64,000 nucleotides of DNA from a virus (IMGVR_UViG_2744054908_000003:536-64535); one strand, 5' to 3'. Positions 5,090 through 59,076 are shown, numbered from the stretch's first letter. Notes: a model not told the origin generated them from the letters alone. Program-made: numbers and translations.

Positions 5090-5202
5090 GGGGTCTCCTC
5101 GTGTTTGATGGGTGGGTGCAAAAAGCGGTGGCGCCAGTTGCGCAAATGCCGTCATTCTTGGAGGTTCGGGGGCTTAAGCGCCCCGTCGCTATCTTTCGTG
5201 CC

Positions 5203-5430
5203 TCATGCGGATAACCCCAACCCAACGCCGCACACAGCAATGCAAAACGCTACAACGACGGTCATCTCGACCGCTTCGCGTGCCGCATAGCGCAGCCACG
5301 GCTGTGGGCGACCATGTTTCCTCGCCTTGTAGTCAGGGCGGCGCATAGGCTCGACATTACCGGCCTTTGGTGCGTCGGTTTCCGTTTCGAACTCGTCGTC
5401 GGCAAGCATTTTCAGGAGCGCGCGGTTCAT
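5203..5430 (-). CDS. Small protein with C-terminal TM helix
   Basis: ATGA overlap with upstream gene; hydrophobic C-terminus. Confidence 0.55.
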   Translation of the reverse strand: MNRALLKMLADDEFETETDAPKAGNVEPMRRPDYKARKHGRPQPWLRYAAREAVEMTVVVAFCIAVCGVGLGLSA

Positions 5431-5771
5431 GCTGCTGCCCTCCGGTTTGTTGCGGCCCGCTCCGCCGCCGGTACGTTGTCGTTCGCGGCTACTGGCTCGA
5501 GGCGATAAAACCCGTGATTGCCCGCACCCCGGTGGTTCATCGGGATCGTCCAGCCAAACGAGGGCAGGAGCTTGCGGAGGCGACTGATTTGCACTCGCAC
5601 AACGTTTTGGGCGCCATCAGGACCGCCGTTCGGATCGAAAGCATAGACGTTGTCGACGAGGTCGTTGATGTAAATGCGGCGCGGATAAATCGCTGCCAGC
5701 GCGTCGACGATGTTTTTCTGTCCGCGTGGGAGAGGCGCACCTTCGAGCTCGGTGGTGGGGTTCCGCTCCAT
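5427..5771 (-). CDS. Winged-helix DNA-binding protein (OmpR/PhoB C-terminal-like)
   Basis: NVVRVQISRLRKLL...GFYRL; tail AANDNVPAAERAATNRRAAA. Confidence 0.75.
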   Translation of the reverse strand: MERNPTTELEGAPLPRGQKNIVDALAAIYPRRIYINDLVDNVYAFDPNGGPDGAQNVVRVQISRLRKLLPSFGWTIPMNHRGAGNHGFYRLEPVAANDNVPAAERAATNRRAAA

Positions 5772-6038
5772 TTAAGCGGCCTCCGCCAGCACTACCGGCG
5801 TGCAGCAAGCTACGGCGCCGCTCGTCTGGAAAACTTCGAACGTCTCGCCGGGACACAGAGCAGCAAGGCGCGTCGCCTCGGCTAAGGCTTGCTCAAACGA
5901 GCCGTGCTCGTATGGCATGGTGGTGAAGACTCCAACCCGGCCAGTCTTTTTGCCGCGGCGGAATACAAAGAATCCGCCGCCGATGATTTCATTCGGGCGA
6001 GGCTTGGGGCTTCTTCTTCTCGGTGCTGTTACGGTCAT
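5772..6038 (-). CDS. First gene of leftward (PL) operon, hypothetical
   Basis: ACACGAGGAG leader; immediately downstream of PL. Confidence 0.7.
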   Translation of the reverse strand: MTVTAPRRRSPKPRPNEIIGGGFFVFRRGKKTGRVGVFTTMPYEHGSFEQALAEATRLAALCPGETFEVFQTSGAVACCTPVVLAEAA

Positions 6039-6118
6039 GTGGGTTTCTCCTCGTGTTTTTTGGTGGGTGGTCAGCAGATCAAGCTGGTGAGGCTGTCTTC
6101 GTGCTGTTCACGAGGAGA

Positions 6119-6180
6119 TGTATCGCATCAAAACATGATGTAGTCAATGATAAAATGATAAAACGATAATTGAAATGATA
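6119..6180 (-). promoter_or_regulatory. PL-like promoter (TTGACT-N17-GATACA) with adjacent ATAAAA(T/C)GATA operator repeats
   Basis: -35 at 6147-6142, -10 at 6124-6119; same repeats recur at 6910-6980. Confidence 0.6.
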
Positions 6181-6903
6181 TTATCGCTGTGAGAATACGA
6201 CCTTATGGACGCTTATCACCTGGTCGCGATCGAAAAAGACTTCTCGAGGCGGGTTATATTGATAAAGGACCAGTCGGCTCGGTTGCCACCCTACGAATTC
6301 CTTTATGTATCCATAAGGTTCATGCCCGTCCTCGTCCGCATGCAACTGAACAACGACGTCATCACCACGGCGAGGTTTGACGTGCGGATGCAGCCAAATG
6401 GTTTCACCGGATTTATACCGTGGGAACATGGATTCGCCGTCGACATACACAGAATACGCTTCTTTTACTCCAGCAAGCATTGGCGGACGTACCTCCCAGC
6501 CTAGAATCTCGCCGTTAAACTCATACCTACCGTCATCGCCACCTACTGCGCGCCCACGAACTGGAACGTCACGCTCGCCCCCAATATGTTCACTTGAAAT
6601 CGCTATTTGAGGGGTAGGGCGACTCACGAGTGGCTTCACAGCGGCCGTAAGTCGTTCTGTTTTGCCGGACTGCACGACAGAATTAGCCATTAGACGCGCG
6701 AATAACAGTCGTTCGATACCGAGAGAATCGGCAACGGATTCCCAATTCCGGATGCTAGACGCATCGCCGTTTTCCCATTGGGAGACCGTATTTTGGTTCA
6801 CGCCGACGCGCTCGCCGAGCTCCGCCTGACTCCATTTAAGAGCCTTGCGACGTTGACGTATGAGTGCCCCTAATCCTAGGTCTGACGCGTGAATATCTAT
6901 CAT
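6181..6903 (-). CDS. CI-like prophage repressor (XRE HTH + S24 autopeptidase)
   Basis: WSQAELGERVGVNQNTVSQWENG HTH; GESMFP catalytic Ser and YIKE Lys. Confidence 0.93.
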   Translation of the reverse strand: MIDIHASDLGLGALIRQRRKALKWSQAELGERVGVNQNTVSQWENGDASSIRNWESVADSLGIERLLFARLMANSVVQSGKTERLTAAVKPLVSRPTPQIAISSEHIGGERDVPVRGRAVGGDDGRYEFNGEILGWEVRPPMLAGVKEAYSVYVDGESMFPRYKSGETIWLHPHVKPRRGDDVVVQLHADEDGHEPYGYIKEFVGWQPSRLVLYQYNPPREVFFDRDQVISVHKVVFSQR

Positions 6904-6909
6904 TCCACA

Positions 6910-57292: not shown

Positions 57293-57305
57293 CTTGATGT
57301 TAGAG

Positions 57306-57334
57306 AAAGGCGCCCCGAAGGGCGCCCTTTATTT
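57306..57334 (+). terminator. Intrinsic terminator, possibly bidirectional
   Basis: ggcgccc-cgaa-gggcgcc followed by cttttattt. Confidence 0.65.
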
Positions 57335-57645
57335 GCGTTTTCCTTTTGTTTCGTCCTGACGAAGGACCGAACCAGCCATAGCTTTGATTTGGCTGGGGGT
57401 GGCCTTGCCAGTTGAAAGGGCCTTAGCCGCGATAGACGATACTTTATTCCCGGTTTCGGCTTTTGCCATAATATTCACCATCCATTAGCAGTTTCGGAGC
57501 GCAACGTTCGACTGGAGTTCGTTTCGTTGACGATCGGAATCTGCCCGAATCATGTCTTTTCGTCAAGATATAGTTTTTTATTTGAGCGTTAACACTATAT
57601 TTAGTATCTGCCGCGTCATTATTGTAAGTTCCCGTTTTATTTTTA

Positions 57646-57680
57646 TCAGCCATTAACACCACATTTATCGAGACATTCCA
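57646..57680 (+). repeat. 35-bp direct repeat, copy 2
   Basis: Matches 26871-26905 with one mismatch. Confidence 0.9.
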
Positions 57681-57733
57681 TCCTTCCTTTTGCGCCGCTC
57701 ACCACGGCTACCAACCAAACACGAGGAGACTGT

Positions 57734-59023
57734 ATGTCCCATGACAGACAGGGCGCGGGTGCGCGCCTTTCACACGAAGAACTCCTGCGGCGTGCCGAGG
57801 CTTACCGCGAGCACGGTACGCTGGTTAAGGCTGCCGCTGCGCTTGGCATCAAGAAGTCGGCGTTCCACGAAAGCATAAAGCGGGCCGCTGAGATTGGGCT
57901 GTTGGGTCCGTCACCGACATTGCCCGGCTATGCGATCAAAAGCCTGACCGAGACGCCGAACGGCACTTACATGCGCCAGACGAAAGAGGCTGGCCCGGCT
58001 TACGAGCCAACGGCTGGCCTTGCCGTCAAAGGCAAGACGACGCTCGTTAATGCCGAAGGTCGGGTGATTACGCAGCACATTATGGAGCGGGCTGACGCGC
58101 AGCAACAACGGGCAGTGCTGGATGCCATGGTGTCGGCGCTATCCGAAAGCCTGCCTCGTGTCAGCATTATGCCCGCTCCGCGAGGCACCAATGCCGACCT
58201 TCTCAATTTCTTCTGCTTGACGGACGCTCATTTCGGGATGCTGGCATGGCGCGAAGAAACCGGCGCTGATTACGATATCGAGATTGCAGAGCAGCTTGTT
58301 ACGGACTGGTTCGCTGCCGCGATTGATCTTGCGCCTGACGCGCATACTGCCGTTTTGGCGCAACTCGGTGACCTTGCTCATTACGACAGCATGGAAACGG
58401 TTACGCCCGCCAGCAAGCACGTACTGGATTCAGATTCACGCCTGCAGAAGATCATTCGCGTCATCATCCGGACGGTTCGGCGCGTTATAGACATGTTGCT
58501 GCAAAAGCATCTGCACGTGCACATCATTATGGCGCAGGGCAATCACGATCCGGCCTCTTCGGCGTGGCTGCGGGAAATGCTGGCAGCAATGTATGAGAAC
58601 GAGCCCCGTATCACCGTCGATAACTCGCCCAGCCTCTATTACGCTTACGAGTGGGGTAGGACGGCGATATTCGCTCATCATGGCCACAAGCGAGGCGTCA
58701 GTAATGTCGATGCGACGCTGGCTGGCATGTTTCGAGAAATGTACGGCCGGAGCAAATATGCCTATGCGCACATCGGCCATTTGCATTCCGACGAAGGGCG
58801 CAAGTCTGGACTGATGTATGTCGAGCGCCACGAGACGCTGGCGGCTCCAGACGCATATGCTGCTGGCGGGGGCTGGCTGTCAGGCAGATCGGCCAAGGTG
58901 ATTACGTACTCAAAGCTGTACGGCGAAGTTTCGCGGCTGACCTTGCGGCCTGAAATGGTGCATGGCGCGGCGCGTATCCCGGTTGCGGCGAATGATAACA
59001 AGCCCAGCCGTGCGGCAGCCTGA
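57734..59023 (+). CDS. HTH + calcineurin-like metallophosphoesterase
   Basis: TDAHFG, GDLAH, GNHD, HHGH, GHLH; ends AANDNKPSRAAA. Confidence 0.88.
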   Translation: MSHDRQGAGARLSHEELLRRAEAYREHGTLVKAAAALGIKKSAFHESIKRAAEIGLLGPSPTLPGYAIKSLTETPNGTYMRQTKEAGPAYEPTAGLAVKGKTTLVNAEGRVITQHIMERADAQQQRAVLDAMVSALSESLPRVSIMPAPRGTNADLLNFFCLTDAHFGMLAWREETGADYDIEIAEQLVTDWFAAAIDLAPDAHTAVLAQLGDLAHYDSMETVTPASKHVLDSDSRLQKIIRVIIRTVRRVIDMLLQKHLHVHIIMAQGNHDPASSAWLREMLAAMYENEPRITVDNSPSLYYAYEWGRTAIFAHHGHKRGVSNVDATLAGMFREMYGRSKYAYAHIGHLHSDEGRKSGLMYVERHETLAAPDAYAAGGGWLSGRSAKVITYSKLYGEVSRLTLRPEMVHGAARIPVAANDNKPSRAAA

Positions 59024-59076
59024 CCACCGCGCCGCCCACCAAGCGGCGCTTTCACCACAAACACGAGGAGAGAAAT

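Follow-up and report, generated by a model that had tools for sequence, protein, structure and literature searches.

A start-associated leader with a covarying hairpin in the early region of a 16-3-like prophage: a putative cis-acting translation-initiation element

The early region of the prophage described here repeats one 10-nt word, ACACGAGGAG, in front of gene after gene, sometimes behind a GC hairpin. This raises the question of whether such a leader helps the ribosome to start, is an address for a regulator, or marks borders at which gene cassettes are exchanged. The window (the whole stretch of viral DNA that was analysed, 64,000 nucleotides) comes from a 16-3-like prophage, a temperate phage of a Brucella/Ochrobactrum-type host. 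On balance, we regard the element as a start-associated translation-initiation leader in the mRNA, acting in cis and probably read by the host ribosome. This reading builds on what was observed of its position, orientation and copy number, its restriction to phages, the covariation of its hairpin and a start region predicted to have little structure.

Occurrence of the 10-mer and the genes that it leads

An exact search returned the same 13 copies that a preliminary description had found by eye, at the starts listed below, and the claim that this is far above chance holds (0.14 expected from 100 shuffles, maximum 1). The word is all-or-none: besides the 13 exact copies there are two with one mismatch and 25 with two, and the 40 matches with up to two mismatches compare with 47 expected. 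Every copy reads in the direction of local transcription and has the same orientation as the gene downstream. A start codon stands 0–8 nt 3' of the word in 12/13 copies, with an ATG available in all 12; 11 of the 13 are 2–8 nt 5' of the ATG with which an early, replication or recombination gene begins, and the remaining two are one copy before a 15-codon ORF and one orphan. The features, in order of coordinate, are as follows.

5095..5104, minus strand: ACACGAGGAG, 5 nt before ATG 5089 of an 86-aa early protein (4832-5089) conserved in 5/5 related prophages
6047..6056, minus strand: ACACGAGGAG, 8 nt before ATG 6038 of an 88-aa protein (phrog_17352), first gene in the leftward early operon
6082..6094, minus strand: weak 3-bp hairpin AGC-cucacca-GCU, within a CAGCA...UGCUG stem of the leftward leader
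7101..7110, plus strand: ACACGAGGAG, past the rightward early promoter region, heading only ORF 7112-7156 of 15 (or 13) codons
9507..9690, plus strand: structured, conserved 184-nt leader of the 94-aa HTH gene
9568..9577, plus strand: ACACGAGGAG, orphan
9679..9688, plus strand: ACACGAGGAG, 2 nt before ATG 9691 of the 94-aa HTH protein
11265..11274, plus strand: ACACGAGGAG, 5 nt before the ATG of a Sak4-like AAA_24 protein (11280-12086)
13094..13103, plus strand: ACACGAGGAG, within the 3' end of an endonuclease VII-like gene and 8 nt before the ATG of an SSB-like protein (13112-13675)
13689..13711, plus strand: hairpin AGGCGCGG-uuaccag-CCGCGCCU, 11 nt 5' of the 10-mer
13723..13732, plus strand: ACACGAGGAG, preceding the DNA polymerase III beta-clamp gene (ATG 13739)
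18634..18654, plus strand: hairpin GCUUUGG-agaccua-CCAGAGC, 11 nt 5' of the 10-mer
18666..18675, plus strand: ACACGAGGAG, 5 nt before the ATG of a Gp157 / Gam-like protein (18681-19211)
19446..19468, plus strand: hairpin CCCGCCAG-ccaccaa-CUGGCGGG, 13 nt 5' of the 10-mer
19482..19491, plus strand: ACACGAGGAG, preceding an N6/N4 DNA methyltransferase gene (ATG 19498)
26871..26920, plus strand: promoter-like repeat, core CATTAACACCACATTTATCGAG at 26876-26897
26915..26931, plus strand: hairpin UGCCG-cuaccaa-CGGCA, 11 nt 5' of the 10-mer
26943..26952, plus strand: ACACGAGGAG, 5 nt before the ATG of a VRR-NUC nuclease (26958-27458)
57646..57695, plus strand: second copy of the promoter-like repeat
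57694..57708, plus strand: hairpin GCCG-cucacca-CGGC, 10 nt 5' of the 10-mer
57719..57728, plus strand: ACACGAGGAG, 5 nt before the ATG of a DNA repair exonuclease (57734-59020)
59029..59049, plus strand: hairpin GCGCCGC-ccaccaa-GCGGCGC, 11 nt 5' of the 10-mer
59061..59070, plus strand: ACACGAGGAG, 6 nt before the ATG of a DUF7768 protein (59077-59598)

In the whole-window count no exact copy occurs between 26952 and 57719, so that the 29.6–55 kb structural region is free of the word, as had been noticed; 'phage-wide', the term first applied to the element, should read early-region-wide. Its genes encode Sak4, SSB-like, beta-clamp, Gp157/Gam-like, methyltransferase, VRR-NUC, exonuclease and small early proteins. 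They are early, replication and recombination genes without translational coupling to the gene upstream; the upstream gap is at least 40 nt for 10/12 of them (median 127 nt), compared with a median of 2 nt for 37 other early genes. The promoter-like repeat (TTAACA-N17-CATTCC, with TTGACA in that place in relatives) is a candidate promoter.

Architecture of the leader

Five strong GC hairpins (13689, 19446, 26915, 57694 and 59029) have a 7-nt loop of the form YNACCAR and end 10–13 nt before the 10-mer. These are five of the six that had been proposed, and they lie where they had been placed; the sixth, at 6082-6094, is weak, with a stem of just 3 bp. One further hairpin, at 18634-18654, has 7 bp and the 7-nt loop AGACCUA. 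Of the YNACCAR sites 8–32 nt before GAGGAG and a start, 47/96 have a closing stem of at least 4 bp, against 45/1718 elsewhere, and the paired leader sites have 15 different closing 4-mers. Across relatives, the stems have a covariation score of 0.667; shuffling gives 0.168 (0/500 shuffles reach 0.667), and sliding the partners gives no more than 0.153. Four inner pairs of the alignment had been chosen for pairing, so that the unbiased test is that of the outer pairs only. Since the stems both differ and covary under a conserved 7-nt loop, the sequence comparison argues that the hairpin is, as had been surmised, a real single-strand (RNA) structure. No Rfam family matches any leader at gathering score. 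The sole Rfam match in the window is ar14, at 18244-18364 on the minus strand, outside the leaders. An intrinsic terminator was considered and rejected: no stem is followed on the sense strand by a U-tract, and a terminator scan flags 13689-13711 and 19446-19468 on the opposite strand only.

The hairpin had been named as a part of the element and placed before many copies, but an ACCA-loop hairpin is found at only 5–6 of the 13. What most copies share is a C/A-rich tract: ACCAC lies within 40 nt 5' of 10/13 copies against 0.31 expected, a 32-fold enrichment. From 5' to 3', we would describe the element as a short GC hairpin, present in about half of the copies and with YNACCAR as its 7-nt loop; a G-poor, C/A-rich, putatively single-stranded tract of 10–25 nt in which ACCAC is nearly always present; and ACAC fused to the Shine-Dalgarno (SD) core GAGGAG, with an ATG 2–8 nt downstream. 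GAGGAG pairs with CUCCUU in the 3' end of the host 16S rRNA (...GGAUCACCUCCUUUCU (CACCUCCUUUCU)). ACAC has no partner there, and the motif does indeed exceed a Shine-Dalgarno sequence, as first suggested. ACAC stands directly before GAGGAG in 35/41 leaders of the clade; in sister clades these four bases vary (CATC, ACAA, CACA, CACT) and the tract is still C/A-rich, which is easier to reconcile with a compositional rule than with a fixed operator.

Start regions are mostly predicted to be open. For the SD, the probability of being unpaired is predicted at 0.59 against 0.43 (p=0.0017), and the upstream G content is 15% against 29%. Sequestration is predicted at 9679, 6056 (minus strand) and 26943. 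Possible pairing of an upstream pyrimidine tract with the SD is seen at 6036-6116 (minus strand) and 9600-9693, each with z=-3.35, and also at 26883-26960; thus, some copies may be repressed and not maximally open. The one long leader, that of the HTH gene, contains an extended stem (9510-9551) whose loop is GGCACCACCCG, then the orphan 10-mer, a UUCCUU anti-SD (9604-9609) and a further hairpin (9634-9662). The 9679 copy can pair with the upstream UUCCUU in 4/4 orthologues. The orphan has no start codon within 15 nt, in agreement with the preliminary description; a pairing of its GGAG with CUUC directly behind a mini-hairpin is predicted (about 9573-9593), and the copy is kept in the relatives examined, in one of them with one mismatch.

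Restriction to phages

In five host genomes the word is nearly confined to prophages: the related prophage holds 14/22, 14/19, 10/14, 12/15 and 10/10 of the copies, and four more in the first genome fall in a second prophage. The remaining copies are at the level of a reversed-word control (1–6 per genome). Related prophages have 10–14 copies each; among 200 other Rhizobiales genomes none has more than 10, scattered, and the counts match controls. No use of the leader by host genes was seen in the host genomes compared, and to judge from these genomes the leader is private to phages and not a host leader.

The second prophage is a different one, and tblastn detected no early protein common to it and the window. 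No RNA-binding family was recognised among 40 early proteins scanned, and the ASCH candidate at 3469-3798 has no Pfam family and no homologue in five related prophages. A complement of the leader is absent from the window except for an unconserved site with one mismatch at 6108-6117.

Possible functions of the leader

The cis-acting reading that we prefer would make the leader a portable, structure-free, high-efficiency site for ribosome loading. The C/A-rich tract and ACA would serve as a translational enhancer, or as a standby pad for the host 30S subunit and protein S1, and GAGGAG would pair with CUCCUU of the 16S rRNA. The hairpin would bound the standby pad and screen the start region from upstream sequence that varies in a mosaic genome, and may also stabilise RNA ends. 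In the HTH-gene leader, the UUCCUU anti-SD and the orphan 10-mer could make the site switchable. That the second prophage uses the same 10-mer and appears to share no early protein that could act as a reader is consistent with this scheme. On the other hand, avoidance of structure alone explains neither why the YNACCAR loop is kept over at least 15 unrelated stems nor why ACAC precedes GAGGAG so regularly; these point to sequence-specific recognition. It is also odd, if this were simply the best ribosome-loading sequence for the host, that host genes should lack it. The enhancer and standby precedents come from enterobacteria and not from Rhizobiales.

Alternatively, although we hold this more tentatively, the leader might be the operator of a post-transcriptional regulon, in which a trans-acting reader binds two ACCA boxes (one in the hairpin loop, the other single-stranded) and/or ACACGAGGAG and switches all the led genes on or off together. 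Such a reader could be an RNA-binding protein, of the phage or of the host, or else a small RNA rich in G and U. The constant loop over covarying, unrelated stems, the 32-fold enrichment of ACCAC, the ACAC that cannot pair with 16S rRNA, the all-or-none character of the 10-mer and the conservation of a start-less orphan within a structured leader would all suit such an operator, and candidates are at hand in small conserved early proteins (86, 75, 88 and 94 aa) and a very basic 56-aa ORF (10043-10213). The absence of a recognised RNA-binding family, of a shared early protein and of a conserved complement, as described above, speaks against it, as do the varying bases before GAGGAG in sister clades; a regulon run by a phage RNA-binding protein, as originally proposed with ASCH as a candidate, is not borne out. 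In T4, RegA acts at translational operators and RegB cleaves at GGAG in early mRNAs. The likeness to that system is a phage-wide signal at early and replication ribosome-binding sites that makes joint shut-off possible; the operator sequences are unrelated, and family scans of the early proteins revealed no homologue of RegA or RegB. The logic may also be likened to the bipartite sites of CsrA and to the silencing of C/A-rich enhancers by GcvB, for which there is a reported precedent (PMC3879156).

It is improbable that the word is a recombination anchor, that is, a short identity at gene borders that allows cassette swaps and is conserved by exchange and not by expression. The idea has some foundation: the same leader, hairpin included, stands before different genes in different prophages (the 19446 and 26915 hairpins), and BLAST homology breakpoints fall within 15 nt of 8/13 motif sites, with 0.92 endpoints per site against 0.17 at random. 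Other early gene starts, however, are breakpoints nearly as often (11/39 touched, 0.77 endpoints per site), and with per-site rates so similar the support is weak. Ten nucleotides are moreover very short for homologous exchange, and the ATG distance, the strand rule, the covarying hairpin and the open C/A-rich tract would all be left unexplained.

Least probable of all is that the hairpins and C-rich tracts are signals for transcription (nut-like, rut or terminators) or elements of RNA processing or stability. The order of C/A-rich tract, hairpin and C/A-rich tract does recall the rutA-boxB-rutB layout of lambda tR1, some hairpins lie 6–30 nt past a stop codon (13678 to 13689, 59023 to 59029) like a 3' stabiliser, and two lie just 3' of the promoter-like repeat like a 5' stabiliser; but there is no sense-strand U-tract, the tracts of 10–25 nt are short for Rho loading, the stems of 4–9 bp are too short for RNase III, and no leader has an Rfam match. 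The nut-like antitermination that had been suggested is unlikely, and a lambda-type nut site was rejected: there are 5–6 hairpins and 13 leaders per genome, linked to start codons at 2–8 nt and not confined to two promoter-proximal sites, one per early promoter, and family scans of the early proteins found no N homologue.

Relation to known leaders

The closest known analogue is the SAS and ESAS of Cluster K mycobacteriophages, described in 2011 (PMC3203893; see also PMC11373665 and PMC12699233). According to the passages cited, both involve a short asymmetric word (11–19 copies per genome there, 13 here) that lies 3–9 bp before start codons, mostly ATG (0–8 nt here), in a single orientation and with an occasional orphan copy, is restricted to non-structural genes and leads genes of different families. 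Both have an AGGAG core with conserved flanks unable to pair with 16S rRNA, are missing from the host genome or no commoner there than by chance, and in both roughly half of the copies are preceded by an additional inverted repeat. The SAS consensus as given there, GGGATAGGAGCCC, is an unrelated word, and the phage lineage and host phylum are unrelated too; with a different word, in a 16-3-like phage of an alphaproteobacterial host, the present leader is thus an analogue and not a member. The inverted repeats of ESAS are described in these accounts as 17 bp and imperfect, with arms conserved in sequence, no RNA pairing and a promoter inside, whereas here the stems vary and covary, the 7-nt loop is conserved, and the element includes a C/A-rich, ACCAC-bearing tract.

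C/A-rich and ACA motifs beside the SD are reported to enhance translation in enterobacteria (Yang et al. 2014, PMC3879156; Sterk et al. 2018, PMC5934652), and such enhancers to be silenced by GcvB (PMC3879156). The likeness is a G-poor, unstructured C/A tract with ACA directly 5' of the SD; the cases in these reports are enterobacterial host transporter genes of variable sequence, in contrast to the phage-private, repeated word with a hairpin seen here, for which enhancement is putative. The tisB standby site, as reported, consists of a stem-loop and a single-stranded region of ~15 nt and depends on S1 (Romilly et al. 2019, PMC6690012). Here too a short stem-loop is followed by putatively single-stranded RNA 5' of the ribosome-binding site (10–13 nt, in 5–6 of 13 copies); the tisB site is, on that account, about 100 nt from a sequestered ribosome-binding site, whereas the present one abuts an SD that is mostly predicted to be open.

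Implications

A rather doubtful proposal is that the leader is the operator of a private translational regulon of 16-3-like rhizobial phages, whose putative reader, be it a G/U-rich RNA, a host factor or a small basic protein encoded by the phage, would recognise the two ACCA boxes, the single-stranded one of which adjoins the SD. If so, about a dozen replication genes would be timed or shut off together, and the orphan within the long HTH-gene leader (184 nt) would serve as a decoy or sensor in a feedback loop. The function of SAS/ESAS is described as still unexplained in the 2024–2025 literature cited (PMC11373665, PMC12699233), and the prophage would then offer a tractable Gram-negative model for start-associated sequences, unexplained since 2011.

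Copies of the leader word and the genes that they precede

The 13 coordinates given for the 10-mer ACACGAGGAG (ACAC followed by GAGGAG) in the preliminary description are all exactly reproduced in the window, where 0.14 copies are expected. The word is either exact or absent, since mismatched matches stay at the chance level: with up to two mismatches allowed there are 40 matches against 47 expected (13 exact, two with one mismatch and 25 with two), so that inexact copies in the window show no excess. Of the copies, 11 are on the plus strand and two, both in the leftward early operon, are on the minus strand; all are oriented like the genes downstream of them. 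The ATG of a real gene stands 2–8 nt 3' of 11 copies. The copy at 7101 precedes a 15-codon ORF (7112–7156, plus strand), which lies after the rightward early promoter and is followed by some 380 nt in which there is no convincing gene; the equivalent leader in relatives heads a longer reading frame. No start codon stands within 15 nt of the copy at 9568, and the structural and lysis region (26952 to 57719) is free of copies.

Genes with a copy before their start (led genes) encode, according to family scans, two small early proteins, a 94-aa HTH protein, a Sak4-like ATPase, an SSB-like protein, the DNA polymerase III beta clamp, a Gp157/Gam-like protein, an N6/N4 methyltransferase, a VRR-NUC nuclease, a DNA repair exonuclease and a DUF7768 protein. 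On the rough gene map on which the gap statistics rest, a gap of at least 40 nt precedes 10 of 12 led genes (median 127 nt), as against a median of 2 nt for the 37 other early-region genes, which are therefore mostly coupled to the gene before them. Such a gap precedes 27 early genes in all; 10 of these have the leader, and many of the 17 that lack it are opposite-strand or accessory genes. Accessory genes without a leader also occupy 23986–26535 in the replication region (a PAS-HWE histidine kinase on the plus strand and a KAP-family P-loop NTPase on the minus strand). A 79-aa early protein (1208–1444, minus strand) resembles the RF-1 (peptidyl-tRNA hydrolase) domain only weakly, its score of 18.9 bits (E=0.0015) being below the cutoff of 35.

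Anatomy of the leader and the covarying hairpin

The RNA 5' of the word is C/A-rich and G-poor (130 C, 100 A, 51 G and 44 T in the last 25 nt summed over the 13 copies; a Mesorhizobium word, CCCTACCAC(G)GAG, resembles this tract), and ACCAC is found in the 40 nt before 10 of the 13 copies, against 0.31 expected. Five copies are preceded by a GC hairpin with an ACCA-holding loop of 7 nt, which ends 10–13 nt before the word. These five are the strong hairpins of the preliminary description; the sixth that it proposed, near 6085 on the minus strand, has 3 bp only.

Hairpins upstream of the leader word
13689–13711, plus strand: GC hairpin with ACCA loop
19446–19468, plus strand: GC hairpin with ACCA loop
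26915–26931, plus strand: GC hairpin with ACCA loop
57694–57708, plus strand: GC hairpin with ACCA loop
59029–59049, plus strand: GC hairpin with ACCA loop
18634–18654, plus strand: a sixth hairpin, with loop AGACCUA

It had been claimed that the stems differ while the loop is conserved, and this is borne out on a wider sample. Sites were chosen by sequence only, as YNACCAR 8–32 nt before GAGGAG and a start codon; at least four consecutive pairs close the exact 7-nt loop at 47 of 96 distinct sites, compared with 45 of the 1718 YNACCAR words at other places in these sequences, and the closing 4-mers are of 15 different kinds. In fixed-length windows of the 47 hairpins, 80.4% of cells are paired (51.8% after shuffling) and the covariation score is 0.667 (0.168 shuffled), a value reached by none of 500 shuffles; slid partners give at most 0.153. 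Two-sided changes occur at all nine stem pairs. Pairing was a selection criterion for the inner four pairs but not for pairs 5 to 7, which still form in 42, 39 and 40 of the 47 sequences. Judged from these comparisons, the hairpin is a real single-strand structure and not a DNA-binding palindrome, because the loop is conserved while the stem varies.

Rfam has no family match at any leader, and no tRNA or tmRNA was found. The leaders at 26943 and 57719 have in common a 50-nt promoter-like repeat, which starts at 26871 and 57646, and scans for sigma-70 promoters stay at the chance level. A further word, CCRGACAGAU, is present at 7062–7071 in the rightward early leader, where no pairing partner is seen, and at 9631–9640 in the leader of the HTH gene, where it supplies the 5' arm of a 12-bp hairpin; both places are kept in relatives.

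Conservation in relatives and restriction to prophages

The source record is a 64,535-bp virus sequence with an integrase gene at its beginning. Megablast against the phage collection gives no matches; the exonuclease is 68% identical to its counterpart in Rhizobium phage 16-3, and a search with the beta clamp finds prophages of Brucella daejeonensis, Ochrobactrum sp., Brucella pseudintermedia, a Rhizobiales isolate and two Falsochrobactrum species (78–96% identity). Prophages resembling 16-3 are highly prevalent in Ochrobactrum, according to PMC5492332.

The word is nearly confined to prophages. Within five host genomes, 14 of 22, 14 of 19, 10 of 14, 12 of 15 and 10 of 10 exact copies fall in the related prophage; the first host, B. 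daejeonensis, has four further copies in a second prophage (G001:C4:131257–165167), two of which precede genes, the other two being orphans separated by 111 nt; this prophage also has a similar promoter-like word. The remaining host copies (3–5 per genome) resemble a reversed-word control (1–6 per genome), and 200 other Rhizobiales genomes have at most 10 scattered copies each, in numbers that follow the control. A looser pattern (CCAC, 2–12 nt, GAGGAG, 4–9 nt, ATG) is likewise concentrated in prophages. A host leader, equally common in the genes of the host, is thereby ruled out. Public sequencing runs that match the window do so as contigs only (word shares 0.05–0.32), which are unable to show RNA ends.

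The seven phage regions compared, namely the window, the second prophage and the five related ones, have 77 exact copies in total, in a layout like that of the window. When a C/A-rich tract, GAGGAG and a start codon are the sole criteria, 41 leaders are picked out, and ACAC precedes GAGGAG in 35 of them; the other six have CCAC (twice), ACGC, CCAT, ACAA and AGAT. Upstream of the exonuclease, the exact word is kept in at least 25 of 65 IMG/VR relatives, and eleven more distant relatives have a GGCCGC-ccaccaa-GCGGCC hairpin followed by ACCACCACAU(C) and GAGGAG. ACACGAGGAG is absent from the record of phage 16-3, in which there are six C/A-rich GAGGAG leaders and, among those listed, at least six ACCA-containing 7-nt-loop hairpins upstream of GAGGAG, four with an ACCAA loop. 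From the relatives and 16-3, what the whole family has in common is the loop of the hairpin, a C/A-rich tract with ACCAC, and GAGGAG; ACAC is the form fixed in the Brucella/Ochrobactrum clade. In 16-3, the promoter-like word TTGACAAATTTGTAAAAC stands ahead of several C/A-rich GAGGAG leaders (33860–33817 on the minus strand, 57252 and 57819).

A probable ribosome-loading site

The 3' end of host 16S rRNA is GGAUCACCUCCUUUCU, with which GAGGAG forms five Watson–Crick pairs and one wobble; GAGGAG is therefore a Shine–Dalgarno (SD) site, and ACAC is without a partner. Pairing of the ACCA words with 16S rRNA was rejected, their complements lying solely at internal positions, which we take to be helical. 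The predicted unpaired probability of the SD is 0.59 in led genes and 0.43 in others (p=0.0017), and that of –20 to +10 is 0.60 and 0.45, respectively (p=7.7e-5; 10 led and 68 other genes in both cases). As described in PMC3879156 and PMC5934652, C/A-rich tracts and ACA trinucleotides adjoining the SD are strong translational enhancers in enterobacteria, and a stem-loop with ~15 nt of single-stranded RNA makes up the S1-dependent standby site of tisB (PMC6690012). Because the phage leader has the same parts, it is probably a portable ribosome-loading site, with the host ribosome as its reader, for those early genes whose translation has to start independently; the step from anatomy to function is one that we infer.

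Upstream of the HTH gene lies a gap of 184 nt, both conserved and structured across four orthologues.

Parts of the HTH-gene leader, 9507–9690, plus strand, 5' to 3'
Long covarying stem with GGCACCACCCG loop
Orphan 10-mer
Conserved UUCCUU (9604–9609)
12-bp hairpin
Real leader, 2–3 nt from the ATG

The GGAG of the orphan 10-mer is predicted to pair locally with CUUC, which comes after a mini-hairpin. Forcing UUCCUU onto the real SD gives structures 0–1.3 kcal/mol above the minimum in all four orthologues, whereas forcing it onto the orphan costs 1.3–7.6 kcal/mol. These pairings are invariant, and covariation thus speaks neither for nor against them. In such folding models, the leader looks like a regulated, SD-sequestering version of the element.

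Other possible readers and functions

It is possible that the leader has a dedicated reader with sequence-specific recognition, either host-encoded or of remote homology. The conserved loop sequence, the near-fixed ACAC and the orphan 10-mer argue for such recognition. Against a reader encoded by the phage, family scans of 40 early proteins find no RNA-binding domain, and the ASCH protein put forward as a candidate has no Pfam family and no homologue in the five related prophages. Moreover, the second prophage of B. daejeonensis uses the same 10-mer, yet has only structural proteins in common with the window. From the preliminary interpretation, the RNA structure and its restriction to phages are retained, and the regulon of a phage RNA-binding protein is left as a less likely reading. 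A very basic 56-aa ORF with a TTG start at 10043 (within 10027–10213, plus strand) might be a nucleic-acid binder; it is preceded by CGACGAGGAG, the leader with two mismatches, has tblastn matches in all five related prophages (72–96% identity) and has no PHROG family match.

The leader might also serve as a recombination anchor, given that the same leader stands before different genes in different prophages and that homology breakpoints occur at 8 of 13 motif sites compared with 11 of 39 other early gene starts. Endpoints per site are nevertheless 0.92 and 0.77, respectively (0.17 at random); gene borders in general are junctions, and the leader is therefore at most slightly favoured.

An antisense partner was rejected: the single complement-like site (6108–6117, one mismatch) is missing at the same place in relatives. 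This site reads UCACGAGGAG on the plus strand and gives CUCCUCGUGA in the leftward leader region, where it is predicted to be able to pair with the copy at 6047–6056 (8 bp, z=–3.35); it probably lies at or before the transcription start. The small RNA ar14 (RF02344, 'cuckoo') is present at 18244–18364 on the minus strand (82.8 bits), antisense between the helicase and Gp157-like genes, with three hairpins whose loops are CUCCUCCUCCCAA. Its CUCCUCCUCCC loops could pair with GAGGAG, but likewise with any SD, and it was rejected as reader of the leader. Host genomes have 5–6 copies of ar14 each; only one of the five related prophages carries it, and it is thus an accessory gene.

Comparison with start-associated sequences

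The element agrees point by point with the start-associated sequences (SAS) of Cluster K mycobacteriophages, the exceptions being the sequence of the word, the lineage of the phage and the kind of repeat found upstream; it is an analogue of SAS and not a member. SAS have been known since 2011, with no mechanism given in the available text of PMC3203893 and PMC11373665. A full-text literature search with the 10-mer returned unrelated primer matches only, and neither the available literature on ribosome-binding sites and stem-loops in phage 16-3 nor the main text of the Ochrobactrum prophage paper describes the element.

For annotation, the 10-mer reliably marks true start codons in 16-3-like prophages, as well as their early transcription units. 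The SAS type of genomic logic is now seen in an unrelated phage family with genetically tractable Gram-negative hosts, and with two testable features, namely a clearly covarying hairpin with a conserved loop and a C/A-rich, ACA-bearing tract. This suggests that temperate phages have repeatedly evolved a private, portable translation-start module for self-initiating early genes.
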